The notes under the pieces: model-generated
What the model saw: only the letters and a program-made list of their open reading frames with translations
Database searches by the model: none
Told to the model about the DNA's origin: nothing
Source: Actinomycetota bacterium
GTDB taxonomy: Bacteria; Actinomycetota; Acidimicrobiia; Spongiisociales; UBA4744
Direction: 5' to 3'
Assembly: GCA_013152275.1 (NCBI GenBank)
Contig: JAADGS010000046.1
Span: forward strand, 1 to 41,265
DNA: 41,265 bases
Translations under genes and position numbers: made by a program
Shown here: piece after piece, positions 816-20,455 of the stretch
Numbering within the stretch: position 1 is the first letter of the stretch
How the letters are laid out: each line of letters begins with the position of its first letter

Positions 816-960
816 GTGGACGGCGATGGACACTCACGGATACCGGTTGGAGATCTGCGGATCTTGGGGTTCGAGTCCCTCCGGGCGTGCTGGCGAAACC
901 CTGCTCCTGCGGGGGTTTCGCATGAGAGAGGCTCCTTGACCGTTTGACGTTTGGGAGTCG
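816..960 (+). repeat. att-like composite site copy 1 (tRNA-Arg(ACG) 3' fragment, degenerate)
   Basis: GGA(C/T) at 818/828/838; TTGGAGAT-CTGCGGA-TC..TTGGGGTTCGAGTCCCTCCGGGCGTGC at 847-890; hairpin GCGAAACCC..GGGTTTCGC at 893-921; GACGTTTGGGAGTC at 946-959. Confidence 0.85.
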
Positions 961-997
961 TGTTGTGGACGTCGGCGTCGGTTCGTCTGGCCCACGC

Positions 998-1404
998 TCA
1001 GCCTTGGTCGGCGAACCGGACGCGTTCTCTGAGCCACGATGCAGTCCAGGTCTCGTCGACCTCTCCGGCGGCGATGGCCAGCATCGCTTCCTCGGCCTGG
1101 TCCGATGACGGGTGGGTCGGGGTCCCAGGTGCCGTGGTTGAGGTCGATGAACTGGCCGGCGTCGCCCAAGCCGCCTGCTTGTTCCCGTCGGGGAGGGGAT
1201 GGTTCCACGTCAGCCGACATACCAACACGGCGGCCGTGTCGTAGATATCTGGATAGAACTCCACGTCTCCGGACCCGGCCTGGGGGGCGTGCAACGCCGA
1301 GTCGGTCATATCGGAACGCGATCCTTTGGTGAGGGTGTCGGCGTCAACGCCCGTGACTTGTTCGGCCAGCCAGAAGTACTCGGCCAGTTGACGTATCGGG
1401 TCAC
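998..1404 (-). pseudogene. doc: Fic/Doc (death-on-curing) family toxin, frameshifted
   Basis: Fic motif HPLPDGNKQ (canonical R replaced by Q). The GTG start at 1404 overlapping the antitoxin stop (MTRYV..) is out of frame with LAEYFWLAEQV. The segment FIDLNHGTWDPDPPVI lies in another frame, implying compensating indels. Confidence 0.8.
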
Positions 1405-1610
1405 CGGGCGAGGCGTTCCAACAGCTCTCGGTCGCGTTCAAGGAGCCGCTTGGCGCGGCTGGTGAAGTCCTCGTCTTGGCAGACCCGTTCGATCTCGGCT
1501 TTGAGGGCGTCGATGATCAAGGCGTTGACGCTGGTGCCCTTGACTCGGGCGACAGCTTCGGCATCGTCGGCGAGTTCTTCGGGGAGGCGGACGGTGGTTT
1601 GCTTGGCCAT
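1401..1610 (-). CDS. Ribbon-helix-helix (CopG/Arc-like) antitoxin
   Basis: 69 aa MAKQTTVRLPEELADDAEAVARVKGTSVNALII fits the RHH pattern; GTGA overlap with the downstream doc. Confidence 0.85.
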   Translation of the reverse strand: MAKQTTVRLPEELADDAEAVARVKGTSVNALIIDALKAEIERVCQDEDFTSRAKRLLERDRELLERLAR

Positions 1611-1613
1611 GAC

Positions 1614-1644
1614 ATCGCAATATCGCAATATCGCAACAATGCAA
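1614..1644 (-). promoter_or_regulatory. Putative TA operator/promoter: tandem 8-bp repeats ATCGCAAT x3
   Basis: ATCGCAAT-ATCGCAAT-ATCGCAAC-AATGCAA lies immediately upstream of the antitoxin ATG. RHH antitoxins typically bind short repeats over their own promoter. Confidence 0.6.
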
Positions 1645-1777
1645 CTGTGCAGACACCGGCGTCGCCGAAGAGGTATCGCTCATCAGCTCGCGCTCTCGAT
1701 ACGGCCCACCGCCGTGGTGCCGCGGTCGCTCTGGACGAGAGAGGGAGGACGAACTGGGAACATGGATGCGGGCTTCT

Positions 1778-1990
1778 TGGGAGCCATTCGCTGTGGACTG
1801 CTGCGGATGTGCGCGGACGTCAGAGGACATCAAGCCCTGGTAGGTGATGCTGCACGGACGGCTGTGGACGCCTGTGGACACCGCTTGGAGATCTACGGAT
1901 CAGAAAGCTTGGGCCCGAACTCGGAGAGTTCGCCGAGTCCCGCCGGGCGTGGCACAGAAACCTCTGCGGTAGAGGCTGTCGCATGAGCGG
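1778..1990 (+). repeat. att-like composite site copy 2 (longest left arm)
   Basis: TGGGAGCC at 1778; GGA(C/T) at 1795/1805/1815/1825 and 1856/1866/1876; TTGGAGAT-CTACGGA-TCAGAA at 1885-1905; T-arm interrupted by hairpin CGAACTC-GGA-GAGTTCG; CGAGTCCCGCCGGGCGTG; hairpin CCTCT..AGAGG; GCATGAGCGG. Confidence 0.85.
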
Positions 1991-2264: not shown

Positions 2265-3560
2265 CTATGCGGGAGCTTTCGCCCGGAGCTGTGTGACCAG
2301 CTTGTCGAGGAACTTCGATCGCAGCGGTTCGACCGCCATCGCCGCTTTCCACGGAGTCATCTGCTCGATCACCGACAGCGCATGAGAGACGGTTCGGCCC
2401 AGGCTGCTGCCGATGTTGTCGTACAGCAGATCGCCGAGCTTCCCCCGCTCGATCGCCATCATCGCGATCCGCTCCATCATGTCGGTCGGGATGTACGGTC
2501 GCTCTTTTCGTGGTTCCATGCCACGGGCCTCCCATCGACATGCGTCGTAGCAGACACCGCACCCGAGGCACCGATCCGGATCGACCACCGACCAGTTCCT
2601 CCTCAAGCCCTTGCCATGGGTGAGCACCACGTCGATGGCGTCGACCGGGCAGGCCTTGGCGCAGAGTCCACATCCACGGCACTTCGTGTGATCGACGGTC
2701 GCGAGCCAGTTCGACGGCACGATGCCGTCGTAGATGTTGTAGCGCTTGATCGAGCGCATCATCCCGCAGCAGCATCCGCAGCAGTTGCACAGGTACGAGA
2801 TCTCTTCGCGAACGTTGTCGCCGGTCTGGGCGAGTCCCATCGCCTTGGCCTCATTGAGGATCTCTATCCCCTCATCGTTTGTGATGGGCTCCGCGATCCC
2901 GGCCCTGATCATGATCCGGGCCGAGTTGCCGAACGTCATGCATGTGCGGGTCGGAGCATCGCACGCCTCGCCGCGCAATCCGGCGTCGGTCCGGCACGGG
3001 CAGAGGCTCACGGCCACCGTCTCGGCGGTTCGCACTACCTCGGTGGCCCGCTCCCAATCGAGGATCTCGGTCCCCCCTTCGGGAAGGATCTCCTCGCGGA
3101 CCAGGGATCGGCCGATCTGGGTGGTCTCCGTGAAGACACTTCGGACGAAATCCTCATCTTCGAAGAGAGCGTTGAACGCCTCGGCGTACTCCTCCATGGG
3201 TGCGTCGGGGCGCGGCCGCATGAAGGTGAACTCGTAGAAGCCGATCACCACCGGAGTCGCCACCACATAGCGCGTACCGTCTCGCTCGAAGTCGAGCAGG
3301 AGCCCACGTTCGGCCATCGACGTGATGTGACTACCGAGCTGTTCCGGGTCGGTTTCGAGCTTCTCGGCGAGTGTTGGCAGGCCGACCAGTTGGGGCAACT
3401 GCCGGGCGACGTGGGCATCTTCCGGTGTGAACAGGAGACGCAGAACGCGAAGCATCGCGTCGGAGCCGGGGGCACCGGTGACGTTGCGGTTGAGCCGTTC
3501 CTGCAACAGCCGGTACTCCTCGTCGACCGCGGCTTCCGAAATCGGCACCGCTTGGGCCAC
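2265..3560 (-). CDS. 4Fe-4S dicluster domain-containing protein (N-terminal winged-helix-like region, Cys-rich core)
   Basis: Motifs CPCR, CNCCGCCCG, CRGCGLCAKACP and CLGCGVCYDAC; GGAGG RBS before the GTG at 3560. Confidence 0.85.
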   Translation of the reverse strand: MAQAVPISEAAVDEEYRLLQERLNRNVTGAPGSDAMLRVLRLLFTPEDAHVARQLPQLVGLPTLAEKLETDPEQLGSHITSMAERGLLLDFERDGTRYVVATPVVIGFYEFTFMRPRPDAPMEEYAEAFNALFEDEDFVRSVFTETTQIGRSLVREEILPEGGTEILDWERATEVVRTAETVAVSLCPCRTDAGLRGEACDAPTRTCMTFGNSARIMIRAGIAEPITNDEGIEILNEAKAMGLAQTGDNVREEISYLCNCCGCCCGMMRSIKRYNIYDGIVPSNWLATVDHTKCRGCGLCAKACPVDAIDVVLTHGKGLRRNWSVVDPDRCLGCGVCYDACRWEARGMEPRKERPYIPTDMMERIAMMAIERGKLGDLLYDNIGSSLGRTVSHALSVIEQMTPWKAAMAVEPLRSKFLDKLVTQLRAKAPA

Positions 3561-3865: not shown

Positions 3866-4028
3866 TGGGAGCCAAGTTGGGAGCCTTTCGCTGTGGACTG
3901 CTGCGTACGCCCGTGGACACGGCTTGGAGATCTACGGATCAGAAGGTTGGGGGTTCGAGTCCCTCCGGGCATGCCACTGGGACCCTTGTGCGAGCGGGGA
4001 TTTCGCTGTGAGCGGTTGATCGACGTTT
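3866..4028 (+). repeat. att-like composite site copy 3 (best-preserved tRNA-Arg(ACG) 3' half, 3932-3976)
   Basis: TGGGAGCC x2 (3866, 3878); GGAC at 3895 and 3915; TTGGAGAT then CTACGGA TCAGA AGGTT GGGGG TTCGAGT CCCTC CGGGCAT G CCA (anticodon loop, stem strand, variable loop, T-arm, acceptor strand, CCA). No 5' half; TGAGCGG downstream. Confidence 0.9.
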
Positions 4029-4199
4029 GCCGGCGGGATGCGGTCCTGGAAGCCGTTGGCCCGTAGTCGGGAGCTCTCGGATCATCACAGCAAGGGAACT
4101 CCACCGCCCGCATCCGTCGATGACCGATCGGCCCGCCACCGGTTGTCAGGGAGCAATGATCTAGGCTTGGTTGCTCGCCCCCCGGAGAGGAGCAGGCGC

Positions 4200-6527
4200 G
4201 TGGCGGGCTGGCAGCCATCACCCGAGATTCAGGCTCTCTATGCGGATCATGTCGAGAGTCGGGCCGCGCTCGGCGTCGAGCGTGCGATTCACTACACGGA
4301 GTATTGGAAGAGCAAGGCAGGCAAACAAAGCTCCTCGTGCCTCCGGAACGCCGAAGCGCTGGCCTACCACCTGGAACGACGTTCGATCCGGATCTACCCG
4401 GGTGAGCTGATCGTCGGTTCCCATACGGAGCATCGGGTCGGCGCCATTTGTCACATCGAGAAGGCCGGCTTGTTCATGCTGGGGGATCTCTTCCGTTTCG
4501 AGAAGCGAGCGGTGAATCCACTCCGTTTGGAGCCGGGCGCCAAGAGAGCGCTCCTTCGCTCTCCGATTCCCTACTGGCTCAATCGCAATGTGGCCATGCG
4601 CTCCTTCCCGCTTCGCGAGAGGCTTGCGTACGCCAAAGACCAGCTCCGTGCCACGTCTTTCGTCATCAACGAGGCCGGAGGCGTGGCCCACTTCCTGCCC
4701 GACTACGAACAGCTCATCCGGCTCGGCACCGACGGCCTGCGGGCGAAGGTGCAGGAACGAATCGATCGGGGAGGGCTCGGTGCGGACGGGCTCGACTACC
4801 TCGAGGCAAGCCTCGTCGCCCTGACGGCAGTCGAACACTTCGCCGATCGGTACCGGGATGAGGCCCGGCACCAGGGACGAGACGACATCGTCGAGGTGCT
4901 CTCCCACGTCCCGCGCCGGCCGGCCCGGACCCTTCGGGAAGCGCTGCAATTGATCTGGTTGTTCCAACTGTTGATCCAGGTCGAGTCCCTCGATCAGGGC
5001 ATCAGCCTCGGGCGCATGGACCAGTACCTGTATCCGCTCTTGTGTGAGGACAAGAAGGACCCCGGCTTCGACCCGGATCGGGTTCGTGACCTGTTTGCAG
5101 CCTTCTGCATCAAACTGTCGGAGATCGTCCCGCTCTTCTCCGAGCGCGTCACCGAGTACTTCGCCGGCCTGCCCACCGGGCAGGTCGTCACCGTCGGCGG
5201 TCTCGATGCCGATGGCAACGACTGCACCAACGAACTCACCTACCTGCTGCTGGATGTCATGGAGGGATTCAAGACCCGGCAACCCAACTGGCACGCCCGT
5301 ATCGGCGCTCGGTCGGATGAAGCGTATGTGAAACGGGTTGTCGAAGTGGTGGCCGGTGGTGGGGGATCTCCGGCGCTCTACAACGACGACGCGATCATGC
5401 CCGCAATGGTCGAACGGGGAGTGGACGCTTCCAAAGTATGGAACTATGCGACGGTGGGTTGCGTGGAGCCGGCGCTGCAGGGAGAGAGTTTCACCTCCTC
5501 CGACGCGGCCATCTTCAACCTGGCGATCGGCCTCGAGCTTCTGCTGGGTGGCGGGCGTCGGCTGAAGCGGGGAGAGGTCCGTGAACGCCCCTGGTTACGC
5601 CAGATCCGATCCACGGCCGAGCTGCTGAAACAACTGGAAGAGCAGACCGACGAGCGAATCCTCGGGATGAAGCACTCGCTCGACGCCATCGAGAGGACCA
5701 ACGCACGGTTCTTCCCAACTCCGCTGTCCTCGCTGACCGTCGGTGGGTGCATCGAGAACGCCACCGACTCCACTCGCGGCGGTGCCTGGTACAACGCCTC
5801 GGGGATCCAGGGGGTGGGCGTGGCCGACTTGGCGAACTCGCTCGCAGTAATCGAGAAGCTCGTCTTCCAGGATGAGAAGTGCACCTTGGAGGATCTCGCC
5901 AACGCCTGTGCGACAGACTTCGACGGCCAGGAGGCGTTGCGCGCCCGTGCCCTCAAGATCGCCGCCTTCGGCAACGACGACCCGCTGGTCGATGACCTGG
6001 CGAACGAAGTTGTCTCGATGTTCGATCGTTGCATCTCGCGGCACACCAACACACGCGGCGGACGCTGGATGCCGGGCTTCTACTCCATGACCTGCCACCA
6101 GGGTTTCGGCAAGCAGACGGCAGCTCTCCCGTCGGGCCGTCTCTCGGGACGTCCTCTGGCCGACGGTCTCGCACCGGTGGATGGCTCGGACCGGCTCGGC
6201 CCCACCGCCTCGCTCAACTCCGTGGCCAGGCTCGACCAGCGGCGCTTCGGCAACGGGATCAATCTCAATATCAAGTTCGACTCGGCAATGGTGGTGGGAC
6301 GGAAAGGCCGCGTCGCCCTCGAAGCCCTGATCCGTGGCTACTTCGCCCAGGGCGGCATGCAACTCCAGATCAACGTACTCGATGTGGACATTCTGGAGCA
6401 GGCCATGCGGGATCCCGATAGCCACCGCAATCTGCTCGTGCGGATCTCGGGCTACTGCGCGTACTTCGTGGACCTCACCCCGGGCATGCAGCAGGAGTTG
6501 ATCGACCGTACGCGACATCGGACGTGA
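4200..6527 (+). CDS. Glycyl radical enzyme (PFL2/dehydratase-like superfamily), substrate unknown
   Basis: Cys loop VGCVEP; C-terminal glycyl loop LLVRISGYCAYF; GISLGRMDQYLYP; AGGAG RBS before GTG at 4200. Confidence 0.92.
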   Translation: MAGWQPSPEIQALYADHVESRAALGVERAIHYTEYWKSKAGKQSSSCLRNAEALAYHLERRSIRIYPGELIVGSHTEHRVGAICHIEKAGLFMLGDLFRFEKRAVNPLRLEPGAKRALLRSPIPYWLNRNVAMRSFPLRERLAYAKDQLRATSFVINEAGGVAHFLPDYEQLIRLGTDGLRAKVQERIDRGGLGADGLDYLEASLVALTAVEHFADRYRDEARHQGRDDIVEVLSHVPRRPARTLREALQLIWLFQLLIQVESLDQGISLGRMDQYLYPLLCEDKKDPGFDPDRVRDLFAAFCIKLSEIVPLFSERVTEYFAGLPTGQVVTVGGLDADGNDCTNELTYLLLDVMEGFKTRQPNWHARIGARSDEAYVKRVVEVVAGGGGSPALYNDDAIMPAMVERGVDASKVWNYATVGCVEPALQGESFTSSDAAIFNLAIGLELLLGGGRRLKRGEVRERPWLRQIRSTAELLKQLEEQTDERILGMKHSLDAIERTNARFFPTPLSSLTVGGCIENATDSTRGGAWYNASGIQGVGVADLANSLAVIEKLVFQDEKCTLEDLANACATDFDGQEALRARALKIAAFGNDDPLVDDLANEVVSMFDRCISRHTNTRGGRWMPGFYSMTCHQGFGKQTAALPSGRLSGRPLADGLAPVDGSDRLGPTASLNSVARLDQRRFGNGINLNIKFDSAMVVGRKGRVALEALIRGYFAQGGMQLQINVLDVDILEQAMRDPDSHRNLLVRISGYCAYFVDLTPGMQQELIDRTRHRT

Positions 6528-7426
6528 CGGAACCAACGGCCCCGGTCTTCGACGTTCAGCGTTTCTCGCTCCACGACGGCCCCGGTATCCGATCCCTGGT
6601 CTTCCTCAAGGGCTGTGCCCTGCACTGCCCCTGGTGCCAGAATCCGGAATCGCAGGCGGCCCAACCGGTCATTGCCTTTTATGAAGATCGCTGTGAGGAG
6701 AGCTTCGAGTGCGCCGCGGTCTGTCCCAACGGGTCGATCCGGCTCGAAGGTTTCCGGGTCGACTACGGGCGCTGCGACCGGTGTGCGCTCTGCGTCGACG
6801 CCTGTGCGTACGGCGCGCTCCGGTTGATCGGTGAGACCCTCACGCCGCAACAGCTCATGGCACGGCTACTGGCGGATCGGCCCTACTACGAGAGCTCCGG
6901 CGGCGGGGTCACCTTCACCGGTGGTGAGCCGACACTTCACCACCGCTTCATGAAGCGCGTGCTCGAGCTCTGTAAGGGGGCCGGGGTTCATACGAATCTC
7001 GAGACCGCCGGGACCTTCTCGTGGGAGACGTGGGAGGAGACGCTTCGCTTACTGGATCTGATCTACTTCGATCTCAAGATCCTCGATTCGCAACTCCACG
7101 AACGGCAACTCGGCGGCGGTTTCGACAGGATCATGGAGAACGCCGTGAAGCTCGTCGCCGACGGGTTTCCGGTGGAGTTCCGGATGGCGCTGATCCCGGG
7201 TTTCACGGATACGCAGGCCAACATCGAAGCCGTCGTCGAACTCCTTCACGTGTTGGGACGGAAAACCATCCACCTGCTCGCCTACCACAACATGGGGGAG
7301 GCGAAGATCGACATCATCCGGGGAAGGCAACCCAAGCTCGGTCTTGCGCGCTACTCCGACGAACGTTGGCACGAGTTACGGAAGACCTTCGAGCTGCGCG
7401 GCGTCGAGGTGCCGGGAGTTCACTGA
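6524..7426 (+). CDS. Glycyl-radical enzyme activating protein (radical SAM with ferredoxin insert)
   Basis: HDGPGIRSLVFLKGCALHCPWCQNPES (CxxxCxxC); GGVTFTGGEP; extra CxxCxxCxxxC; GTGA overlap with the GRE. Confidence 0.93.
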   Translation: MTEPTAPVFDVQRFSLHDGPGIRSLVFLKGCALHCPWCQNPESQAAQPVIAFYEDRCEESFECAAVCPNGSIRLEGFRVDYGRCDRCALCVDACAYGALRLIGETLTPQQLMARLLADRPYYESSGGGVTFTGGEPTLHHRFMKRVLELCKGAGVHTNLETAGTFSWETWEETLRLLDLIYFDLKILDSQLHERQLGGGFDRIMENAVKLVADGFPVEFRMALIPGFTDTQANIEAVVELLHVLGRKTIHLLAYHNMGEAKIDIIRGRQPKLGLARYSDERWHELRKTFELRGVEVPGVH

Positions 7427-7779
7427 GCAACGCAGTCTCGCCTCTCGACGGCGAGGTATCACCGCCCGATGCGATATCGGCTCTGCCGTCGCGACACGAG
7501 GAGTGGCGACACCTCATCCCGTTCGAGTGTTCTTCACTTCCGATGGTTCTGTCGCACGGGATCGAGCTTGCCTGCCACCAGCCTGGTCGTGGAGCGGTGC
7601 TCGGGGGCCGTCTCGGCACAGGCTCCGCTGGTGCGTACGGCATGCAGGCAGCGGTGAGGGCAGCAGCTTCGGCGACCGGAGATCCATCCCTCGATACCCG
7701 TACCTACACCGCTGGTGACCCGCGTCGACACCGTCGAGAGCAGCCTCTTCGAAGAGCACGGCTAGAGTATCCTCGAATT

Positions 7780-7890
7780 CCCGAGCCTCCAGGTTCGGGC
7801 GTCCTCGACAGAGCGAAGTCCGGTGTGAATCCGGCGCTGTCCCGCAACTGTGATGCCTCCTCGTGAGGATAAGCCAGGACGCCTCTCTCG
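7780..7890 (+). ncRNA. Cobalamin riboswitch
   Basis: B12-element cores CCGGTGTGAATCCGGCGCTGTCCCGCAACTGTGA (7820-7853) and AAGCCAGGA (7871-7879) upstream of btuF. Boundaries approximate. Confidence 0.9.
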
Positions 7891-7968
7891 ATGGCGATGT
7901 GCCGAGTCCTCGGAGGAGGGACGACGCCATGGACCAAAGATTGACTCCTCCGACAACAAGGAGGAGTT

Positions 7969-8988
7969 ATGAAACTGATCCGTTCGGTGGCGCTCTTCGG
8001 CGTGCTGATGCTGCTTGTCGCCGCATGCGCCGGTCCGACCACCGCCACCGCCCCGTCGCCTACGACGGTTCCTGAAACCACGACAACGACCGCGGCACCG
8101 ACCACGTCGACCACGTCGACCACGGAACCGGCCACCACCACGACGACGGTGTTGCCGGAGGCTTTCCCGGTGACGATATCGGCCGCCAACGGGGAAGTGA
8201 CCGTCGAGTCGATGCCGAAGCACATCGTGTCACTGTCGCCAACGGGCACGGAGATGCTCTTCGCGATCGGTGCAGGTGACCAGGTGACGGCGGTCGACAG
8301 CTATTCGTACTATCCGGCGGAAGCGCCGGTCACCGAACTGTCGGCGTTTCAACCGGACGTCGAGGCGGTGGTGTCCTACGGACCCGATCTGGTCGTCGTA
8401 TCTCACGATCCGGATGGATTCGTAGCTGGCATGGAGGCTGTGGGCGTGACGGTGCTCATGCTGCCTGCTGCAGAGACACTGGATGACACGTACACCCAGA
8501 TCGAGCAGCTGGGGGCGGCCACAGGGCATGTGGGCGAGGCGGCGCTCTTGGTGGCAGATATGCAGACAGAGATCGACGAGATCGTCTCCGGTGTACCCGA
8601 GTTCGACGAGCCGCCGACCTATTTCCACGAGCTGAGTTCGTCGCTGTATTCGGCGTCGTCGGGAACCTTCATCGGTCAGGTATACGGCCTGTTGGGATTG
8701 GAGAACATTGCCGACGCGGCAGAAGGAGGGGGCCTCTATCCGCAACTGTCGGCGGAGTACATCATCGAGCAGGATCCGGACTTCATCTTCCTGGCCGATG
8801 CCGCCTGTTGTGGCGAATCGGCAGAGACGGTGGCGGCTCGGCCGGGATGGGGAGAGATGTCGGCGGTGACCGGAGGAAGAGTGGTGGAACTCGACACGGA
8901 CGTGGCATCGCGGTGGGGACCGCGCATCGTCGAGTTCCTCAAGACGGTCGCCGGAGCGGTGAGTAAGGCATCGGTGCCGACCGGGTGA
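7969..8988 (+). CDS. btuF: Cobalamin ABC transporter substrate-binding lipoprotein
   Basis: Lipobox-like VAAC, Thr-rich linker, IVSLSPTGTEMLFAIG periplasmic-binding motif, ASRWGPR; AGGAGG RBS; downstream of B12 riboswitch. Confidence 0.88.
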   Translation: MKLIRSVALFGVLMLLVAACAGPTTATAPSPTTVPETTTTTAAPTTSTTSTTEPATTTTTVLPEAFPVTISAANGEVTVESMPKHIVSLSPTGTEMLFAIGAGDQVTAVDSYSYYPAEAPVTELSAFQPDVEAVVSYGPDLVVVSHDPDGFVAGMEAVGVTVLMLPAAETLDDTYTQIEQLGAATGHVGEAALLVADMQTEIDEIVSGVPEFDEPPTYFHELSSSLYSASSGTFIGQVYGLLGLENIADAAEGGGLYPQLSAEYIIEQDPDFIFLADAACCGESAETVAARPGWGEMSAVTGGRVVELDTDVASRWGPRIVEFLKTVAGAVSKASVPTG

Positions 8989-12712: not shown

Positions 12713-14121
12713 GGGCGCTCATGGTCCAGGGATGCACCAGTTCGGCGGGCAAGAGCCTCCTGGTGACGGCGCTCGCCCGCATCTACCGGCGCCGGGGCTT
12801 CTCCGTCGCACCATTCAAGGCGCAGAACATGTCGAACAACGCCCGGGTGGTCGCCGGCGGTGAGATCGGTGTTGCCCAATGGCTCCAAGCGATCGCCGCG
12901 GGGGTTCCTCCGGACGTCCGCATGAACCCGATTCTGGTCAAACCCGAACGAGAGGGAAGCCAGGTGGTCGTCGATGGACAGGTGGATTTCGAAGTCTCCA
13001 ACTTGCCGTGGCGCGACCGATCGCCTCGGGTGTGGCCCGCAGCCCGGCAGGCACTTCACTCCCTGCTCGAGGAGTACGCACTCGTTCTGATGGAAGGTGC
13101 CGGAAGCCCGGCCGAATTCAATCTGTGGGAGAGCGATATCGCCAACATGCGATCAGCGGAGGAGGCGGACGCCGCAGTACTGCTGGTGGTCGACATCGAT
13201 CGAGGTGGTGCATTCGCGCACCTGTATGGGACGTGGCTGTTGCTTCCGGAACCGCAGAGGGAGAGGATCGTCGGGTTCATCCTCAATCGGTTCCGGGGAG
13301 ATGCCTCGCTCCTGGCACCCGCCCCCGAACGAATCGAGGAGATGACGGGAGTCCCGGTGCTGGGCGTCGTACCTTGGATCGCCCACGGACTTCCCGACGA
13401 AGACAACGCTTCGCTCATCGGGCGGAAAGCGACAGGACGCCGACACCGTGTGACGATTGTTCGTTGGCCCACCATCTCGAACTTCGACGAGTTCTCGACG
13501 ATGGCCGGCTTGACCGATGTCATCTGGGCGGAAGATCCGCACGATCTCGAAGGTTCCGATCTCATCATCCTGCCCGGTTCCAAGCATGTCACCTCCGACC
13601 TCGAATGGTTCCGCCGGCGCGGATTCGAACAGGCGCTGGCGGCCGAAGCAGACAAAGGGACACAGATCGTGGGGATCTGTGGCGGGTTGCAGATGCTGGG
13701 GCAAAGGCTTCGCGACCCGAATGGCATCGACGGCGAAGCAGACGGCCTGGGACTCCTCGAAATCGAGACGATCTTCGAGCACGACAAGATCCTCACCGCC
13801 GAGAGCGGCGTCTTTGGCACCTGTCCGGAACCTTGGGAGAAGCTGTCCGATCGCAGCTTCACGGGATATGAGATCAGGCAAGGGAGGTCTGTTGCGGTCG
13901 GGTCGGTGGTCGAGGTACTGCCCCGCGGGCTCGGATATGCCTCCGGCAATGTCCTCGGACTGTACGTGCACGGTGTCTTCGAATCGTCGGACGTGTTGCA
14001 GGGACTCTTGGGCGTAGCCCCGGAGGGGTCACTGGAAGAGGAAATCGACATCGTGGCGGATCATTTCGAACGGTCACTCGACATGACGCGCATCGATGAG
14101 ATTCTCGGAGTGGCGCGATGA
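12709..14121 (+). CDS. cobQ: Cobyric acid synthase
   Basis: VQGCTSSAGKS, PFKAQNMSNN, EGAGSPAE, DIDRGG; glutaminase GICGGLQMLG and YVHG. Confidence 0.95.
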   Translation: MRALMVQGCTSSAGKSLLVTALARIYRRRGFSVAPFKAQNMSNNARVVAGGEIGVAQWLQAIAAGVPPDVRMNPILVKPEREGSQVVVDGQVDFEVSNLPWRDRSPRVWPAARQALHSLLEEYALVLMEGAGSPAEFNLWESDIANMRSAEEADAAVLLVVDIDRGGAFAHLYGTWLLLPEPQRERIVGFILNRFRGDASLLAPAPERIEEMTGVPVLGVVPWIAHGLPDEDNASLIGRKATGRRHRVTIVRWPTISNFDEFSTMAGLTDVIWAEDPHDLEGSDLIILPGSKHVTSDLEWFRRRGFEQALAAEADKGTQIVGICGGLQMLGQRLRDPNGIDGEADGLGLLEIETIFEHDKILTAESGVFGTCPEPWEKLSDRSFTGYEIRQGRSVAVGSVVEVLPRGLGYASGNVLGLYVHGVFESSDVLQGLLGVAPEGSLEEEIDIVADHFERSLDMTRIDEILGVAR

Positions 14122-14669
14122 CCTCTCCCTCGTCCGGCAAGCCCCTTCACCGTTCTGCATCCCGAGTCCTGGTCAACACAGGCCACGGGAAAGGCAAGAC
14201 CTCGGCTGCCATGGGTGTCATGATCCGCGGAGTTGCCCGGGGGTGGAACGTCGCCGTAGTTCAGTTCATCAAGTCGGCTGACCGTCCGACCGGTGAAGCG
14301 AAGATAGGCGAGAGGCTCGGCGTCGACTGGTACACCCTTGGCGATGGCTTCACCTGGCGGTCCCAGGACCTGGACCGCAGCGCCGCCCTCGCCCGCGCCG
14401 GGTGGGAGAAGGCCCGGGCGCTCATCGAGGAGGGAAACCACGAACTGGTGATCCTCGACGAGATCACCTACCCGCTCAACTGGGGTTGGATCCCCGTGGA
14501 GGAAGCGGTGGAGACGATTCGCCAACGCCCCGGCAAGGTGAACGTCATCATCACGGGACGGGATGTTCCCTCCGAGATCATCGACATCGCGGACACCGTC
14601 ACCGAGATGTGCAAGGTGAAACATGCCCACGACCATGGCATTCGCGCCAAGAAAGGTATCGAATACTGA
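14118..14669 (+). CDS. cobO: Cob(I)yrinic acid a,c-diamide adenosyltransferase
   Basis: TGHGKGKTSAAMG, VQFIK, LDEI, ITGR, C-terminal KKGIEY. Confidence 0.95.
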   Translation: MTSPSSGKPLHRSASRVLVNTGHGKGKTSAAMGVMIRGVARGWNVAVVQFIKSADRPTGEAKIGERLGVDWYTLGDGFTWRSQDLDRSAALARAGWEKARALIEEGNHELVILDEITYPLNWGWIPVEEAVETIRQRPGKVNVIITGRDVPSEIIDIADTVTEMCKVKHAHDHGIRAKKGIEY

Positions 14670-15202
14670 TGAGCCTCACCGTGATCCTTGGTGGTGCCCG
14701 TTCGGGGAAGAGCGGCATGGCGCAGCGCCTGGCCCGGGCGACCGGTCGCCCGGTCGTCTTCCTGGCCACCGCGACGGCCGGAGACGACGAGATGGCAGCC
14801 AGAATCGAACGGCACCGCCGTGAACGGCCCACCGACTGGGTGGTCATCGAAGAGCCGGTCGACCTTTCCGGCACGCTCGAGAGGATCGATGGTGAAGACA
14901 CCGTCATCATCGACTGTGTGACGTTGTGGTTGTCCAACGTGTTGGGAATCGGTTGGAGCGAACCGACGATTCTCGCCGGCGCAGCGGAGACTGCCCAACG
15001 GGCGGGAACCCGGCCGGGAGAGACGATCGTTGTGTCAAACGAAGTGGGGATGGGCGTGGTCCCGGTGACTCCACTCGGGAGGAGCTTTCGGGATCTCGCC
15101 GGCCGGGTCAATCGAACGTGGGTCGACGCCGCAGACCGGGCCGGTCTGGTAGTGGCAGGCCGAGTCCTTCCCCTGCTGATGCCGTTGAAGTGGGACGAGT
15201 AG
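14669..15202 (+). CDS. cobU: Bifunctional adenosylcobinamide kinase/guanylyltransferase
   Basis: GGARSGKS, RIERHRRER, DCVTLWLSN, SNEVGMG; TGATG coupling. Confidence 0.95.
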   Translation: MSLTVILGGARSGKSGMAQRLARATGRPVVFLATATAGDDEMAARIERHRRERPTDWVVIEEPVDLSGTLERIDGEDTVIIDCVTLWLSNVLGIGWSEPTILAGAAETAQRAGTRPGETIVVSNEVGMGVVPVTPLGRSFRDLAGRVNRTWVDAADRAGLVVAGRVLPLLMPLKWDE

Positions 15203-15229
15203 ACGATCCGAACAGGAGCACGAGACGAA

Positions 15230-16228
15230 ATGAACAGCGCAACCCTCACTGGTCTGCTGGCCGAAGCGCCACAGCCGGACTCTGATGCGGCCGCGGCGGT
15301 GGCGGCCCGGGTCGCCGACATCCTTCGCCCGAAGGGTGCCCTCGCCCGACTGGACGACATTGCCGTCTGGCTGGCGGGTTGGCAACGCTCGAGCCGCCCC
15401 GCGGTGAAGAGCCCCGCAGTGCTGCTCTTCGCCGGCGACCACGGGGTGTGCGTCGATGGGGTGAGCGCCTATCCCGCCGAGGTCACCGGGGCAATGTGCC
15501 ATGCGATGCGCTCCGGGGTGGCAACGGTGACAGCGATGGCGGGCACCCTCGACGCGACGGTTGAATTGATCGACGTGGGAGTCGGCAAACCCACCGGCAA
15601 TCTGCGAGTCGAGCCGGCGATGTCGGAGGAACGGTTTGGGGAAGCCTTCGGGGCGGGCCGTGCTGCGGTCGCGCGGATCGAGACAGACTTGCTCGTGCTT
15701 GGCGAGATGGGGATCGGCAACACGACCGCAGCCGCCACGATCGCCGCGGCGGTCACCGGAAGCGATCCAAGTCTTTGGGTCGGCTCGGGAACCGGGGTGA
15801 ACAGCCGGGCACTCGAGGGCAAACGAGCGGTTGTCTCCGAAGCGGTACGACGGATTGCCGACGTGACCGATCCCCTCGAGGTGCTGCGCCAGGTCGGGGG
15901 AACCGAGTTGGTGGCCATGGCCGGCGCGGCCGTTGAAGCCCGGCTCCGATCGATCCCGGTGTTGCTGGACGGCTACGTCGTGACCGCTGCCTTGTACCCA
16001 TTGGAGAAGGCGGTCCCCGGCGCTCTCGATCACACCTTGGCCGGACACGTGTCGTCCGAACCGGGACACCGCAAGCTACTCGAGCTGCTCGGCAAGAAGC
16101 CGTTGCTCGATCTTGGGCTCAGGCTGGGGGAGGCGTCTGGTGCGCTGGCCGCTCTCCCGCTGGTCCGACTGGCTGCGGTCGTGGTAACCGACGTGGCCAC
16201 TTTCGCCGAGGTCGGGCTCGGCCGATGA
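15230..16228 (+). CDS. cobT: Nicotinate-nucleotide-dimethylbenzimidazole phosphoribosyltransferase
   Basis: FAGDHGV, GEMGIGNTT, GSGTG, LGLRLGEASGA. Confidence 0.95.
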   Translation: MNSATLTGLLAEAPQPDSDAAAAVAARVADILRPKGALARLDDIAVWLAGWQRSSRPAVKSPAVLLFAGDHGVCVDGVSAYPAEVTGAMCHAMRSGVATVTAMAGTLDATVELIDVGVGKPTGNLRVEPAMSEERFGEAFGAGRAAVARIETDLLVLGEMGIGNTTAAATIAAAVTGSDPSLWVGSGTGVNSRALEGKRAVVSEAVRRIADVTDPLEVLRQVGGTELVAMAGAAVEARLRSIPVLLDGYVVTAALYPLEKAVPGALDHTLAGHVSSEPGHRKLLELLGKKPLLDLGLRLGEASGALAALPLVRLAAVVVTDVATFAEVGLGR

Positions 16229-16992
16229 TCGGTCTGCGGCAGGCGATCGGGCTCCTCACTCGGGTTCCGGTGCGTGTCCCAGGGCCATCCGATGGTGTCC
16301 CGTCGGCCGGAGTGGCGTGGTTTCCGGCCGTCGGCATTCTGGTCGGCGCACTGGCGGGCGGGACATACGCTGCCGGTTTGCTGGTGATGCCGGCCCTTCC
16401 GGCAGCGGTCGCCGCAATAGCGATGGGGGTGCTCGTCACCGGTGCGCTGCATGAGGACGGCCTGGCCGACACCTGTGATGCTCTCGCAGGCGGGCAATCG
16501 CCGGAGCACCGGATGGAGATCCTCAAGGACTCTCGTCACGGCTCGTACGGCGTGCTGGCGCTGGTGCTCACGGTGGGCATGAGGGTGACGTTGGTGGGAT
16601 CACTGGGTGCCGGTTCCGGAATGGTGGCCCTTGTGGTCGCCCACACACTGGGACGGGCACTGGTGGGAGTGGCCATGTTCGTTGGAAAACCGGCGGCGGC
16701 CGAAGGTCTGGGGGCTCGCTACCGGGCCGGACTGGGTGCTTCCCACGCCACGGTTGCAGGCGTCGGTGGTCTGCTCGTGGTGGTTGCCCTGCTCGGATGG
16801 CCCGGGCCGGCTGTGGTGTTGCTGGGAGCCCTGGCCGCGGCAGGGGTCTTGTGGTGGGCTCACGCACGGATCGGCGGGTTCACCGGCGACATTCTCGGTG
16901 CCATCGAACAGGCCGTCGAAGTGGTGTCCCTGGCAGCCGTCGTCGTGCTCGTCGGCAGCGTCAGGGCGGCTGTTCCCTGGTGGAGTACCTGA
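16225..16992 (+). CDS. cobS: Adenosylcobinamide-GDP ribazoletransferase (cobalamin synthase)
   Basis: TGALHEDGLADTCD, ILKDSRHGSYG, GGFTGDILGA. Confidence 0.95.
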   Translation: MIGLRQAIGLLTRVPVRVPGPSDGVPSAGVAWFPAVGILVGALAGGTYAAGLLVMPALPAAVAAIAMGVLVTGALHEDGLADTCDALAGGQSPEHRMEILKDSRHGSYGVLALVLTVGMRVTLVGSLGAGSGMVALVVAHTLGRALVGVAMFVGKPAAAEGLGARYRAGLGASHATVAGVGGLLVVVALLGWPGPAVVLLGALAAAGVLWWAHARIGGFTGDILGAIEQAVEVVSLAAVVVLVGSVRAAVPWWST

Positions 16993-17065
16993 TGCCTCGG
17001 GTCGAGCGGCAGCGAAAGGCCGTCGACCTGGACGCCGTGTCGGCGGATATGGGCGCCAATTCACC

Positions 17066-17578
17066 ATGAGTGCCGGGAACGTGACGATCTGGTTACTCCG
17101 GCACGGGGCGACGGAATGGACTGCCGACCATCGCCTGTGCGGGTGGTCCGATCCGCCACTCAACGATCTCGGGCGCAGCCAGGCTCGGGCCGTCCGTGGG
17201 CGGATCGGCGAGATCCGGCCCGAGTCGGTGTGGTCTTCCGACTTGGCCCGGTGCGTGGAAACCGCAGTGCTCGTCGGAGCCGGCCACCCACGGATCGACA
17301 CCCGGTTGCGGGAGTTCGATTTCGGACGATTGGAGGGACGTCGCTTCGAGGACCTGGACGAGGAAACGCGGCGTGGGCTCGCATCATTCGACGGTTTCGA
17401 AGCTCCGGGAGGCGAGACCGTCGATGCATTCGCCCGGCGAGTCGACGAGTTCATCGCCGAGCTCGAATACGGCCGCCATCTCCTGGTCACCCATGGAGGG
17501 GTCATCAGGCATCTCCTCCGCACAAAGGGGTTGGATCGGTCCATACCACCGGCAGGTCTCGAGATGATCGAAGTCTGA
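17066..17578 (+). CDS. cobC: Histidine phosphatase family protein (likely alpha-ribazole phosphatase)
   Basis: RHGATEW, SSDLARC, LREFDFG, VTHGGVI; last gene of the cob operon. Confidence 0.8.
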   Translation: MSAGNVTIWLLRHGATEWTADHRLCGWSDPPLNDLGRSQARAVRGRIGEIRPESVWSSDLARCVETAVLVGAGHPRIDTRLREFDFGRLEGRRFEDLDEETRRGLASFDGFEAPGGETVDAFARRVDEFIAELEYGRHLLVTHGGVIRHLLRTKGLDRSIPPAGLEMIEV

Positions 17579-17645
17579 AGTGGGAGGGAGAACACGCGAC
17601 GGAAGGCCGGTCGCTTCCGTGAGTGCCGATCTGGGAATGTCGCAG

Positions 17646-17755
17646 CACGAGGTTGAAGTTCGAGTCCCTCCGAGCGTGCCGCGGACCCCCTTGTAGCGCA
17701 AGAGGTCTTGGCCGAGATGGATGAGCGGGCCGTCTGACGTTCGGGAGCCATTCGC
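17646..17755 (+). repeat. att-like composite site copy 4 (anticodon loop and left arm lost)
   Basis: CACGAGGTTGAAGTTCGAGTCCCTCCGAGCGTGCCG (17646-17681) is nearly identical to copy 5. Followed by hairpin GACC..CTTG..CAAG..GGTC, ATGAGCGG and GACGTTCGGGAGCCATTCGC. Confidence 0.8.
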
Positions 17756-17925
17756 GCCGGCCATTCCGTGCGAAACATCGTCGGCCGCGAGCCTCGACTC
17801 CCGTCGTGACGTCCATGACCGACGGAGCCTTGGGTCTGACTGGATCCGTCCGGCGTTGAGCCGATCGAGCAGATTGTCGGCGAGCGTTGCCGGGTCGAAA
17901 CCGTCTTTCGCCAGTTCTGGTGGGC

Positions 17926-18414
17926 CTACGGGTATCGAATGCCGACTTCGGCCTCGATCTCCACCGGCATCCCAAACGGCAACGCCGCCATTCCCACGGC
18001 AGAGCGGGCATGTCGTCCCACCTCGGCTCCGAACACGTCGAGAATCACGTTGGAAAAACCGTTGATGACCGTCGGCTGCCGATCGAAACCCGGAGCCGAG
18101 TTGACCATGCCAAACACGCGCAGCCAGCCCGTGACTCGATCGAGGCTGCCAAGGGATCGCTGCAGCGAACCGAGCATCGACAGGGCCGTGAGACGGGCTG
18201 CCGCCACGGCCTCGTCAAGAGAGACGTTTCCGCCCACCTGGCCGAATGGCGGTGCCGGCGGGCCCTCCGGAGACTGAGGTCCATGTCCCGAGATCAGCGC
18301 CCGGTCGCCTCGGATGTTCACGAAACTGAATGGAAGTACCACGCCTGGCGGTGCCTGGATCTCAGGTGGCAGCTCCAATCCCAGTTCTATCAGCCGATCG
18401 TCTGTCTGTCCCAT
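17926..18414 (-). CDS. RidA/YjgF/YER057c/UK114 family protein
   Basis: ISGHGP, VINGFS, GRHARSAVGMAALPFGMPVEIEAEV. Confidence 0.9.
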   Translation of the reverse strand: MGQTDDRLIELGLELPPEIQAPPGVVLPFSFVNIRGDRALISGHGPQSPEGPPAPPFGQVGGNVSLDEAVAAARLTALSMLGSLQRSLGSLDRVTGWLRVFGMVNSAPGFDRQPTVINGFSNVILDVFGAEVGRHARSAVGMAALPFGMPVEIEAEVGIRYP

Positions 18415-18455
18415 GAGTCACCATCCTCAGCGAGCACTCGCGTCCGGTCTCCGAA

Positions 18456-19151
18456 CTAGCCAAACTTGGCCGCGAACTTGCCGGACGCCCCGGACAGCAG
18501 AGGTTTGCCATGCCCGAATACTGCGGCTTCGAATTCACGATCGGCCAGCTTGGCAAGGCTGGCCCTGGCGGTTGGGAGATCGTTGTAGCCGAGCATGTAG
18601 TTGAGTCCCATCAAGTTGGCAGCGGCATCTCCGGTGATCAGAAGCCCGCGGTCTCTCTTCCACAGCAGCGAAACGTGGCCGGCGGTGTGACCGGGCGTGT
18701 AGATGACCTCGATGCCTCCTGCGACGTTGATCAAGTCTCCGTCGTTGAGAGCGACGTCAGGATCGAAGGCCGGGAATTCGGCGGGTTTCCTCGGGATGAG
18801 CAACCGAAACAGAATGCCGGTGAGCAGACCCGGTCCTGCCTTCATCGTCTGGTGGATGATCCCGGCCCGGGCGATGTCACCGTCTGCTGGGTGCAGGCCG
18901 ATGGGCGTGGTCCCACCAGACAGGTGCTTGGCGCTCCCAAGGTGATCGGGGTGGGCGTGGGTGAGCAGAATGCTCGTGAGGTCGGAGGGCTCACGTCCGA
19001 TCGACCGGATGTCTTTCTCGAGCGCCTCGGCATGTTTGGGGAACCCGGCATCGATGAGTGTGAGACCGTCGTCGCCTTCGTCGATGAGGAACGCGTTGAT
19101 CCCTCCATTGCTCAGCTGATAGAGATCCGAAACGACTTCCTTGGCAGCCAC
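18456..19151 (-). CDS. MBL-fold metallo-hydrolase
   Basis: LIDAG, THAHPDHLG, TPGHTAGH, TGDA, FGHG. Confidence 0.9.
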   Translation of the reverse strand: MAAKEVVSDLYQLSNGGINAFLIDEGDDGLTLIDAGFPKHAEALEKDIRSIGREPSDLTSILLTHAHPDHLGSAKHLSGGTTPIGLHPADGDIARAGIIHQTMKAGPGLLTGILFRLLIPRKPAEFPAFDPDVALNDGDLINVAGGIEVIYTPGHTAGHVSLLWKRDRGLLITGDAAANLMGLNYMLGYNDLPTARASLAKLADREFEAAVFGHGKPLLSGASGKFAAKFG

Positions 19152-19164
19152 GTTGCTCTCCTCG

Positions 19165-19971
19165 TCAGAGAGAGGATTGTCGCAGGAAGCCGGCGACGAT
19201 GTCGTTCCAGCGGGCGGGCCGTTCGAAATAGGGTGAGTGGCCGGTGTTCTCCACGACTGCCACCTCGCTTCCGTCGATGAATCCGGCGGCAGACTCGATC
19301 AGCGGCGGAGGGAATATCGGGTCGCGCTCACCGACCACGAAGAGTGTCCGAGCTTTCACTTGCGCGGCCCGGTCGGTGTGGTCGGTTGTCATGAGCAGCG
19401 GGATGATCTCCATCGGTGGCGGAGGCTCGGTGAGGCTACCCAACTGCGTGTAGAGGAACGAATGCGCCGGGTCTTCGTCGAGTAGTTGGGACCCGATCGC
19501 CGGATGAAGGCCGAGGGCCAGTCGGTCGGTCGGCGGCCCTGCGGCGATCTCCCGTCCGTAGTCGTCGAGCGTCCGGCGGATCTGCGGCGTGAAGATCCCG
19601 GCGGTGGTATCGGCCAGAACCAGTGAGATCGTACGGTCCGGATGGTCGATCGCGAAACCGAGTGCAGACCAGCCACCCATCGACTGCCCGACAATGTGAG
19701 CCCGGTCGATATCGAGATGATCGAGTAAACGCGCCATGTCGCCCACGGATGGAACCGGCCCGATATCTCCAGTGATACGGGTCGACCGGCCGAAACCACG
19801 CTGATCCCATGTGACAACCCGATAACGCGGCGCCAGGAAGGCCACTTGCTGATACCAGACCGCGTGGCTCCCGCCCATGCCATGCCCCAGGATCACCGCT
19901 TCGTCGCCGTCTCCCCAGCACTCGAAGTAGATCCGTTCGGTACCGGAGTCGATGAAACCGCATGTCGACAT
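19165..19971 (-). CDS. Alpha/beta fold hydrolase
   Basis: HGMGG, WDQRGFGRS, GQSMGG nucleophile elbow, GHSPYFE. Confidence 0.9.
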   Translation of the reverse strand: MSTCGFIDSGTERIYFECWGDGDEAVILGHGMGGSHAVWYQQVAFLAPRYRVVTWDQRGFGRSTRITGDIGPVPSVGDMARLLDHLDIDRAHIVGQSMGGWSALGFAIDHPDRTISLVLADTTAGIFTPQIRRTLDDYGREIAAGPPTDRLALGLHPAIGSQLLDEDPAHSFLYTQLGSLTEPPPPMEIIPLLMTTDHTDRAAQVKARTLFVVGERDPIFPPPLIESAAGFIDGSEVAVVENTGHSPYFERPARWNDIVAGFLRQSSL

Positions 19972-20320
19972 CGCGTGGGAGAGTAGACGCGGGGCGAGTC
20001 GGACGCTCAACCTCTGATCCCATGACCCAGCGCGAGATGCTGTCAAGCCCCCTGGGCCTGCTCGCTCCGCCCGGCTTGATTGCGTTGAGTCCCGGATCCC
20101 GGGGGAATAGGTGCATCTTCGGACTTTCGGCTGTGACCGGCGAGGACATCTACGACGCCCTGACATGCCGCCTCGACTGGACGGCGGATAACCTCGGGCA
20201 GCGGCTCGAAGAGTCCTTCAACGGACTGCCTCTCATCGACTCGAGGCCACGAGCGCAGAGGCCGACCCACACACCACCAGCCGGGATCCACACCCGTTGT
20301 CGCGTCGGGGCGCGCAAGTG

Positions 20321-20455
20321 GCTGCGGACCCCCACGCGCGGCGTTTGGAGATCTACGGATCACGAGGTTGGAGTTCGAGTCCCTCCGAGCGTGCCGAGAG
20401 ATCCCTGCTCCACTTCACCCTGTGTTGCGAACGCCTCCGGCAGGCGGTTGGTCGA
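20321..20455 (+). repeat. att-like composite site copy 5
   Basis: GCGGAC at 20324; TTGGAGAT-CTACGGA-TCACGAGGTTGGAGTTCGAGTCCCTCCGAGCGTGCCG at 20345-20396; CCCTGCTCC as in copy 1; GCGGTTGGTCGA resembling the copy 3 right flank. Confidence 0.87.

Follow-up and report, generated by a model that had tools for sequence, protein, structure and literature searches.

Integrase-less gene units in a probable tRNA-Arg(ACG) accretion array of Acidimicrobiia and a candidate helper family of integrative and conjugative elements

What builds a row of small gene units, each bounded by a fragment of the same tRNA gene, when none of the units carries an integrase? We addressed this question for the 41,265-nucleotide contig C97 of an Actinomycetota bacterium of the class Acidimicrobiia (JAADGS010000046.1 in assembly GCA_013152275.1; genome G000, 100 contigs), the whole of which is henceforth referred to as the window. 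A sequence-only reading of this DNA had proposed an integron-like gene-capture array delimited by five copies of one composite site. The window is best explained as the distal portion, now decayed for the most part, of a tRNA-Arg(ACG) accretion array. We consider it probable that its units are cis-mobilizable elements (CIMEs) of one Acidimicrobiia family of integrative and conjugative elements of the actinomycete type (AICEs), carried with the AICE and left when the AICE excises.

The five co-oriented copies (c1 to c5) were found where they had been placed, near positions 855, 1893, 3932, 17646 and 20353; all are intergenic and on the + strand. A 23-nt T-arm probe taken from the genome's own tRNA-Arg(ACG) matched four places in the window at 22/23; on the - strand the best score was 17/23, and 20 mononucleotide shuffles gave best scores of 15-17/23. 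The fifth copy for this probe, c2, has a 17-nt insertion in its tRNA piece, yet retains an exact 16-nt core, TGGAGATCTACGGATC. No tRNA genes were found in the window. Contigs from sequencing run X1 cover 727-20470 with few differences, which supports the assembly. The segments have the sizes and contents that had been described (1.0, 2.0, 13.7 and 2.7 kb), and the claim that they lack integrases and transposases stood: none of the 52 scanned window open reading frames (ORFs) matched a recombinase or transposase family, PF00589 had no match on C97, and a hidden Markov model (HMM) of the helper integrase introduced below had no match in the six frames of the window. A sigma-70 promoter and terminator scan of 700-4300 gave nothing above chance, and an Rfam scan of the window returned a cobalamin riboswitch, one chance-level match and nothing else.

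Searching genome_contigs with an exact 23-nt arm motif returned 104 stretches, most of them titled Acidimicrobiia, and flanks were fetched for 80. These 80 loci and regions from relatives gave 176 junctions, 132 of them with the arm of the window sites (family B), and 123 segments. The family-B left arm, defined by aligning 16 clean sites, is ~130 bp long. It begins with two copies of TGGGAGCC, 12 bp apart, and continues with four GGAC repeats, a spacer, three more GGAC repeats, GCTTGGAGAT and the anticodon loop; the GGAC period is 10 bp. Among the 98 junctions with complete flanks, GGAC starts at -17 (85 junctions), -27 (81) and -37 (60) and, beyond the spacer, at -68 (40), -78 (54), -88 (48) and -98 (32). 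The 12-bp arm pair is present in 81 of the 98, a count biased upward because many loci were found by that motif, and 40 have the right-arm motif GGGAGCC, for which 0.016 occurrences would be expected per 145 bp. In 97 of the 98, not one base is in common with the tRNA to the left of CTACGGA, in agreement with the proposed crossover in the anticodon loop. To judge from their sequence, the window sites are attP-like junctions in which the predicted crossover at CTACGGA is followed by the 3' half of tRNA-Arg(ACG). From lambda-type and mycobacteriophage attachment (att) sites, we take the arm repeats to be arm-type integrase sites and the GGAC repeats to be helically phased excisionase (Xis) sites.

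The window copies are unequal:

783..960, + strand: junction c1, decayed; left arm reduced to its proximal half and lacking TGGGAGCC repeats
855-861, + strand: c1 core, CTGCGGA, then a tRNA-Arg 3' piece with a 7-nt deletion
946-960, + strand: degenerate right arm of c1, which with a GC hairpin makes up its distal parts
1777..1990, + strand: junction c2; full-length left arm with one TGGGAGCC and GGAC repeats (arm HMM E 2e-24)
1893-1899, + strand: c2 core, exact; the 17-nt insertion interrupts its tRNA piece
3866..4060, + strand: junction c3, the best preserved; GGGAGCC at 3867 and 3879, three GGAC-type repeats
3932-3938, + strand: c3 core; tRNA 3' half (43/44) to 3975, then a hairpin and a degenerate right arm
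17646..17752, + strand: junction c4, left half lost; tRNA 3' piece at 17646-17681, core and left arm gone
17736, + strand: c4 right arm, intact, GACGTTCGGGAGCCATT
20321..20396, + strand: junction c5; arm remnant, without TGGGAGCC repeats
20353-20359, + strand: c5 core, exact; tRNA 3' half 39/44

Only c3 has two arm repeats together with a core and a tRNA half that are intact, and even its left arm is short by ~61 bp, roughly six helical turns; with c3 itself, 3 of the 98 junctions have an arm of this length. The statement that tRNA similarity starts exactly at CTACGGA is correct for c2, c3 and c5 and fails for c1 (CTGCGGA, 7-nt deletion) and c4 (core lost). Most window junctions look decayed rather than active and the array looks mostly fixed in G000; the junctions that look usable in this genome are c3 and perhaps c2, and no others.

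An intact tRNA-Arg(ACG), which had been predicted upstream on the same strand, is the only one in G000 and lies at C75:67518-67594. It is followed by a convergent tyrosine integrase gene and a helix-turn-helix (HTH) gene, 1.7 kb from the contig end. One gene of the same-genus genome G002 spans the join between C51, at its end and on the reverse strand, and the window, at its first base, with a gap of ~132 bp; C51 carries another tRNA-Arg 3' piece. The dgt-like gene of the window end lies 25 kb downstream of tRNA-Arg(ACG) in G033 and 29 kb downstream in G042. Because of this bridge and of the downstream position of the dgt-like gene, the order is predicted to be tRNA, C75 element, gap, C51, window; the C75-C51 link is one that we infer. 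Two element families occur at this tRNA, family B (the window sites) and family A (the C75 type), the latter with GGTCCGC/GGGCCGC arm repeats and junctions that keep TCTGA to the left of the loop. The expectation of an integrase and a directionality factor nearby was only partly borne out: the C75 integrase belongs to another family with other arms, and an integrase and excisionase with the window's arms are found on an AICE elsewhere.

We looked for that enzyme in an even sample of 301 genomes of the class. The family-B arm is present in 28 of the 301, G000 and the unpublished G283 among them, and all 28 belong to the order of the window; the count is a minimum, as G181 escaped it. In G012, a 397-aa tyrosine integrase gene and an HTH_17 gene lie inside a B-armed element (the helper integrase reference is L020:7391-8584). 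Relatives of this integrase at 72-75% occur in 3 of the 301 genomes, and 8 other genomes have matches at 41-47%. In three genomes the integrase is flanked by the intact tRNA-Arg(ACG) on one side and by a B arm on the other: G012 (11.8 kb), G173 (10.0 kb) and G181 (19.9 kb). The metagenome loci L218/L219 and L235 extend from the tRNA over int and xis to the B arm; for the G331 integrase, the first downstream junction is of another type. A metagenome search found 138 integrase relatives, of which 80 loci were kept. In the kept loci with at least 55% identity that reach a tRNA, this tRNA is tRNA-Arg(ACG), and GGG(A/T)GCC pairs are present. The 11 metagenome integrases that were examined are free of stops and retain their catalytic motifs. 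Judged by this co-occurrence with the arms, the 397-aa AICE integrase is the likely enzyme for window-type arms. We rejected a phage source for the arms: viral_contigs gave no match to the helper protein or to either of two DNA patterns.

The backbone in G173 and G181 comprises a Phage_integrase-family (PF00589) Int, a small unassigned protein, an HTH_17 Xis, RepSA and an FtsK/SpoIIIE protein. In G181/G173, RepSA matches PF20199 at 514 bits and the FtsK/SpoIIIE protein matches PF01580; the helper TraB and RepSA are below the NCBIfam equivalog cut-offs. The triad recurs in L220, L223, L226 and L228. The Int, Rep and Tra triad has been used to define AICEs (PMC3218068; here and below, the cited sources are drawn on in part). 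The helper combines Int, Rep and an FtsK/SpoIIIE-type Tra with int next to the att end, integration in a tRNA gene, flanking att repeats and an HTH_17 excisionase gene upstream of int, so that on its gene content it is an AICE with predicted transfer and replication functions. Cargo is also found between its integrase and its att end (0.6-8 kb), including defense-like genes: a SAVED-domain gene in G173 (L201:9469-9999) and IrrE-like peptidase and ThiF genes in G181 (L204:909-3649). In a sister clade (55-59%; L231-L248), the integrase abuts its own arm immediately behind tRNA-Arg(ACG), and multi-site rows occur in this clade too (L242, with an intact tRNA and three further pieces).

The arrays themselves are mostly free of helpers. 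Ninety-four segments end in a B arm without an A-arm start, with a median of 1.9 kb (10th-90th percentile 0.85-6.5 kb); of the 93 analyzed (one had no usable left end), the helper-integrase HMM matches 3 and finds no trace in 90. One 31-kb region holds eight B-ended units and no helper. Arm and integrase (at least 72%) occur together in 2 of the 28 arm-positive genomes, and the best integrase match is at most 39% in the array-rich G041-G045, of which G041 and G042 are single-contig. In G000 (an assembly of 100 contigs), the best tblastn match to the helper integrase is 46% over 50 aa, and the helper RepSA has no tblastn match at 40% or more. Intact tRNAs are followed directly by 18 integrase-less units, and 21 of the 28 rank-1 segments end in a B arm, 3 of them being helpers. 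A gene-less 261-bp unit in G025 (L014:7786-8122), with its right arm joined to a left arm, also stands directly behind an intact tRNA and resembles a microCIME. Two family-B arms lie far from the tRNA-Arg(ACG) locus, at G331:C3:1049202 (~830 kb) and G019:C2:224126 (~185 kb), and are possibly secondary sites or rearrangements.

The units contain neither integration nor transfer genes. The 185 called cassette ORFs fall into 132 clusters, and none of the 131 representative proteins scanned is a tyrosine recombinase, Rep or Tra protein; their sole transposition-related matches are insertion-sequence-type transposase pieces in one locus, and one unit (L098) holds a repSA remnant. The att ends of the helper family are retained, partly decayed in the window with c3 near intact. 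The ORFs lie on both strands (120 -, 65 +), and the median arm-gene gaps are 113 bp and 137 bp (46 units). A type II toxin-antitoxin (TA) gene is present in 25 of the 80 units with ORF calls; TA units are the most common recurrent cargo, which is probably owed to addiction.

We next consider whether units are shared between hosts. The clustering of 119 segments gave 94 clusters, 87 of them singletons. The largest cluster is formed by the ribbon-helix-helix (RHH)-Doc unit of the window, which occurs in 10 arrays of 9 genomes, with two copies (78% alike) in G333. These units are 0.86-1.05 kb long and 69-84% identical, with the same orientation, shared arm-to-gene boundaries and an arm-to-gene gap of a few tens of bp. 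In two arrays the unit directly follows the tRNA, in others it stands at later ranks, and its neighbors differ. Two clades with 100/100 support in the TA tree are rejected by recA (approximately unbiased (AU) test, p 0.006); conversely, the TA data reject two groupings of the recA tree (AU p 0.0006 and 0.0003). In addition, the third unit of G041 and the first unit of L071 have 1542 bp in common at 96.8%, starting at the tRNA piece, in hosts whose recA genes are 79% alike and which share no upstream flank. We did not use a 97% pair (G020/L084) as main evidence, as the G020 contig is 6 kb and could be misbinned. These comparisons of sequence indicate that the units move horizontally between hosts.

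In the reading that we favor, new elements would enter at the intact tRNA and push older ones away, so that each junction would be the right end of a newer unit joined to the left end of an older one. The AICE integrase would bind the TGGGAGCC arm repeats and cross over at the anticodon loop, and the HTH_17 Xis would bind the GGAC repeats with their 10-bp period. Units may have arisen as cargo that remained between two arms once the backbone had been lost. Where an AICE stands in front of resident units, it would excise together with them, replicate through RepSA and transfer through the TraB-like protein. The composite would integrate in a new host, and the later excision of the AICE alone would leave a unit directly behind the tRNA; repeated hit-and-run cycles would build a row. 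Such cis-carriage needs no cassette function, and it explains helper-free arrays. A route of accretion and cis-mobilization has been described for CIMEs (PMC5704250, PMC7563491).

Several observations weigh against cis-carriage by this AICE family. We found no clear intact AICE directly followed by several arm-complete units; in G331, such units stand further down, behind other junction types. Integrase frames are damaged in three genomic AICE copies (one TGA in G173, frameshifts in G181 and G331), and the intact G012 copy has no RepSA or TraB. A gene of the helper loci is matched at 45% or more by 1 of the 185 cassette ORFs, so that an origin by deletion from present-day helpers is not visible. 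The choice of loci by an exact arm motif inflates arm conservation, the tree groups were named after the trees had been seen, and recA covers 594 nt only. Most hosts are metagenome bins, whose short contigs can be misbinned. The G041/L071 match ends ~150 bp (L071) and ~320 bp (G041) before the next core, and the right ends differ.

A bolder reading, which we regard as doubtful but worth stating, holds that the units are long-lived minimal mobile cassettes (two arms and one or two genes, often TA) rather than decay products. They would capture chromosomal genes, and a visiting AICE would excise, reorder and re-insert them singly, which would make the array a tRNA-anchored analogue of an integron with its integrase supplied by a transient conjugative element and shared across an Acidimicrobiia order. 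We think it unlikely that single cassettes are shuffled in trans, that is, excised as circles by Int and Xis of a co-resident AICE and re-inserted singly at the tRNA, with separate TraB transfer possible. The compactness of the units, the occurrence of the same unit at different ranks and cargo unrelated to helper genes would suit such shuffling, and tandem Frankia AICEs excise singly or together (PMC3218068). However, cis-carriage yields the same rank patterns, the representative cassette proteins supply no replication or transfer function, and no near-identical strain pairs with reordered units were found. No excised circle or skip joint attributable to G000 was present in the contigs of 4 of the 6 listed runs, a weak negative because it covers contigs only. 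The sides of the listed joints measure 20-49 nt, apart from one of 85 nt that a single contig of low depth carries, and copies of the site in other organisms account for these joints.

It is rather improbable, in our judgment, that the units are dead relics of complete AICEs or islands that integrated and lost their backbones in place without later movement, with sharing due to vertical descent or repeated capture. The decay of c1, c4 and c5, the frameshifted doc gene of the window (see below), the repSA remnant in L098, the gene-less unit in G025 and the 87 singletons among 94 clusters are in line with this, and AICE decay is documented (PMC9513070). In-place decay alone explains the state of the window but not the cross-host units: the 96.8% identical unit in hosts 79% alike in recA, the conflict of the TA tree with the host tree, the orientation and arm-to-gene boundaries shared by ten TA units, and the 90 of 93 segments without an integrase remnant all speak against it. 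We see very little chance that the resident C75 integrase acts on the downstream array as an integron integrase would. It has an intact 389-aa frame with an HTH gene upstream and targets the same tRNA, but its elements carry family-A arms and TCTGA-keeping junctions, unlike the window sites, and we rejected it on arm type; it is also 30% identical to the arm-linked integrase, and in G042, which has arrays, tyrosine-recombinase matches are limited to two long ones plus one fragment, with no GGGAGCC arm pair close to any of them. A dispersed tRNA-derived repeat of the miniature inverted-repeat transposable element (MITE) or repetitive extragenic palindromic (REP) kind, unrelated to changes of gene content, is almost certainly not the answer despite the few distant arms in G331 and G019, since in G000 the arm HMM is significant on C97 only, so that the distribution is confined to one locus and one strand, tRNA pieces on both strands were met in none of the regions compared, and gene content in relatives changes exactly at the sites, as had been predicted.

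The cargo of the window segments is as follows:

1..854, + strand: right part of a further unit ending at c1, absent from the sequence-only list; 3' end of a membrane-protein gene that starts on contig C51, and an FtsX-domain remnant
855..1892, no strand assigned: RHH-Doc toxin-antitoxin cassette, 1.04 kb
998..1404, - strand: doc (Fic/DOC) toxin gene, frameshifted (Pfam PF02661)
1401..1610, - strand: ribbon-helix-helix antitoxin, 69 aa (Arc-like PF03869; NF041551)
2265..3557, - strand: 4Fe-4S dicluster protein, sole gene of the 2.0-kb unit
4200..7426, + strand: glycyl-radical enzyme (GRE; PFL2-3-like, below cut-off; start inferred) and activating enzyme
7765..17578, + strand: corrinoid uptake and salvage operon including the riboswitch, without an att site at its left edge; btuFCD-like, cbiB, cobD-like, cobQ, cobO, cobU, cobT, cobS and phosphatase genes
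7765-7904, + strand: cobalamin riboswitch (Rfam)
17926..19968, - strand: Rid/YjgF-like, metallo-beta-lactamase (MBL)-fold and alpha/beta hydrolase genes of the 2.7-kb unit

The TA pair that had been reported in the first cassette is present as RHH and Fic/Doc, with the qualification that doc is frameshifted relative to the 9 homologous cassettes in the alignment. In run X1, contigs with 56.6 of the 100.6 depth at position 1388 carry a letter that restores the frame; the remaining depth is about that of G000, and the lesion is therefore probably real. The 4Fe-4S gene has homologues (74-76% aa) in 7 of 10 genomes of another genus. The five homologue loci that were fetched are mutually syntenic, have no B arm and match the window within the gene only, a chromosomal context that, on sequence comparison, fits gene capture. 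The 13.7-kb GRE and B12 block had been taken for one self-contained cassette, which does not hold. In the same-genus G001, the GRE pair (92% nt) stands behind this site too, but the B12 operon, c4, the hydrolases and c5 are absent from the corresponding place, and the break at ~7552 between the GRE pair and the B12 part has no att site; the block is therefore, by this comparison, a composite of more than one cassette. Among 40 relatives, none has a close DNA match to the B12/hydrolase block (best 64-70%). On C62, G000 has a btuFCD-like set that the B12 salvage operon duplicates (47-60% aa).

Some further observations concern the surroundings of these segments. The recA genes of G001 and G000 are 99% identical (C4:59535-60128), and the genes of the window region only 80-92%. 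In G001, L173 (G001:C7) has an extra degenerate tRNA-Arg piece between amino-acid permease and dinB genes; the corresponding part of the window (~25300-26800) has a DUF2202 gene and no tRNA piece, and an ancestral island may, on this comparison, have reached to dinB. A ~50-bp palindromic repeat at 37304-37357 and 40793-40846, also on C26, C30, C56, C71 and C89, looks like a REP-type repeat or terminator and is unrelated to the att sites. The end of the dgt-like gene (40793-41265) has a second copy, 91% identical, at the end of C89 (C89:30315-30880), which is a duplication, strain mixture or assembly issue. G000 has other tRNA hot spots: 9 fragments of the C3 tRNA-Met(CAT), 7 of Val(CAC) and 4 of Asn(GTT), many on short contigs near integrase matches. 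The tRNA-Met pieces are on C3, C21, C2, C14, C36, C63 and C92, the tRNA-Val(CAC) pieces on C4, C39, C57, C56, C79, C73 and C12, and tRNA-Asn pieces on C14 and C24. On C39 (85-7246), a 3' piece of tRNA-Arg(ACG) that has family-A arms (6821-6868) is enclosed by two tRNA-Val(CAC) pieces and an integrase remnant, which makes it an Arg-type site inside a Val array.

These results name a concrete helper (integrase, excisionase, arm sites and target) for tRNA-bounded integrase-less cassettes, which are usually recorded as island debris. They suggest how uncultured Acidimicrobiia acquire and swap small gene packages even though ~1% of the sampled genomes have the conjugative element. Cis-carriage and single-cassette shuffling become testable with two small genes and ~250-bp sites, and the integrase/att pair is a candidate integration tool for actinobacteria.

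Integrons and CALINs (clusters of attC sites lacking integron-integrases) are ordered rows of one- or two-gene mobile units in which TA cassettes are common and which persist as arrays without an integrase; integrons have the integrase IntI, attC hairpins recombined as single strands and a Pc promoter. The arrays described here are alike in their ordered small mobile units, common TA genes and persistence without an integrase. They differ in that cargo lies on either strand and keeps its own upstream DNA, and in that the insertion point is a tRNA gene, with no attI/Pc platform. Neither integrase is an IntI (helper 36.3 bits, C75 integrase 44.8 bits, against the TIGR02249 cut-off of 265), and the junctions are tRNA halves with direct-repeat arms for which the Rfam scan gave no attC, no dedicated attC model having been run. 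The array works somewhat like an integron array but is not part of the integron family, and the integron analogy of the sequence-only reading fails if taken as membership.

Additive flexible genomic islands and tycheposon islands likewise grow by cassettes added at tRNAs and marked by partial tRNA repeats, with transient elements building persistent islands (PMC7771536, PMC5217437, bioRxiv 10.1101/2020.12.28.424599). In Ca. Actinomarinales, cassettes with partial tRNA repeats are exchanged between genera (PMC7771536). In the parts of these sources drawn on, no arm-type sites or named helper are given for integrase-less cassettes, and tycheposons carry their own integrase. In Dehalococcoides, many tandem islands also stand behind one RNA gene, ssrA, and 15 islands without an integration module were proposed to be CIMEs (PMC3146451), but that system uses a serine recombinase, a tmRNA target and a 20-bp repeat, as opposed to a tyrosine integrase, an anticodon-loop crossover and ~130-bp arms. 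Hitchers that are unrelated to their helpers and outnumber them are described elsewhere, though these move by an origin of transfer (oriT; bioRxiv 10.64898/2026.01.13.699239).

The helper shares with the pSAM2-type AICEs of Streptomyces and Frankia the Int, Xis, RepSA and FtsK-type Tra genes in the order att-tra-rep-int-att, a tRNA target, tandem insertion and decayed remnants (PMC3218068, PMC2440964, PMC9513070). AICE accretion at tRNA-Arg, with decayed remnants flanked by direct repeats and a proposal of cis-mobilization, has been reported (PMC9513070). As far as these sources go, the present family differs in its host class, Acidimicrobiia, in cargo also placed between the integrase and the att end, and in the dominance of helper-less units with full arm arrays kept, whereas the Streptomyces remnants are described as decay products with truncated integrases.

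The closest parallels are streptococcal CIMEs, in which integration and transfer genes are lost and att ends kept, and which form tandem arrays at a gene end, with cargo units of 1.2-13 kb and gene-less microCIMEs; they can outnumber helpers and are cis-mobilized (PMC5704250, PMC7563491). Their helpers are, in the sections drawn on, integrative and conjugative elements (ICEs) with a type IV secretion system or relaxase-encoding integrative and mobilizable elements (IMEs), whereas the helper here is an AICE with RepSA and a TraB-like protein. The S. salivarius composites consist mostly of two or three elements with the CIMEs always most distant; here up to eight helper-free units occupy 31 kb, units are often directly behind the tRNA, and the same minimal TA units recur across host families, unlike in the streptococcal case. 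In the literature searched (main texts, few subscription papers), neither this AICE family nor its arms nor these arrays were found described. The concept of CIME accretion is already in print; what we describe is an order-wide variant of it, with long helper-free rows, recurrent minimal TA units and an AICE family newly identified here.

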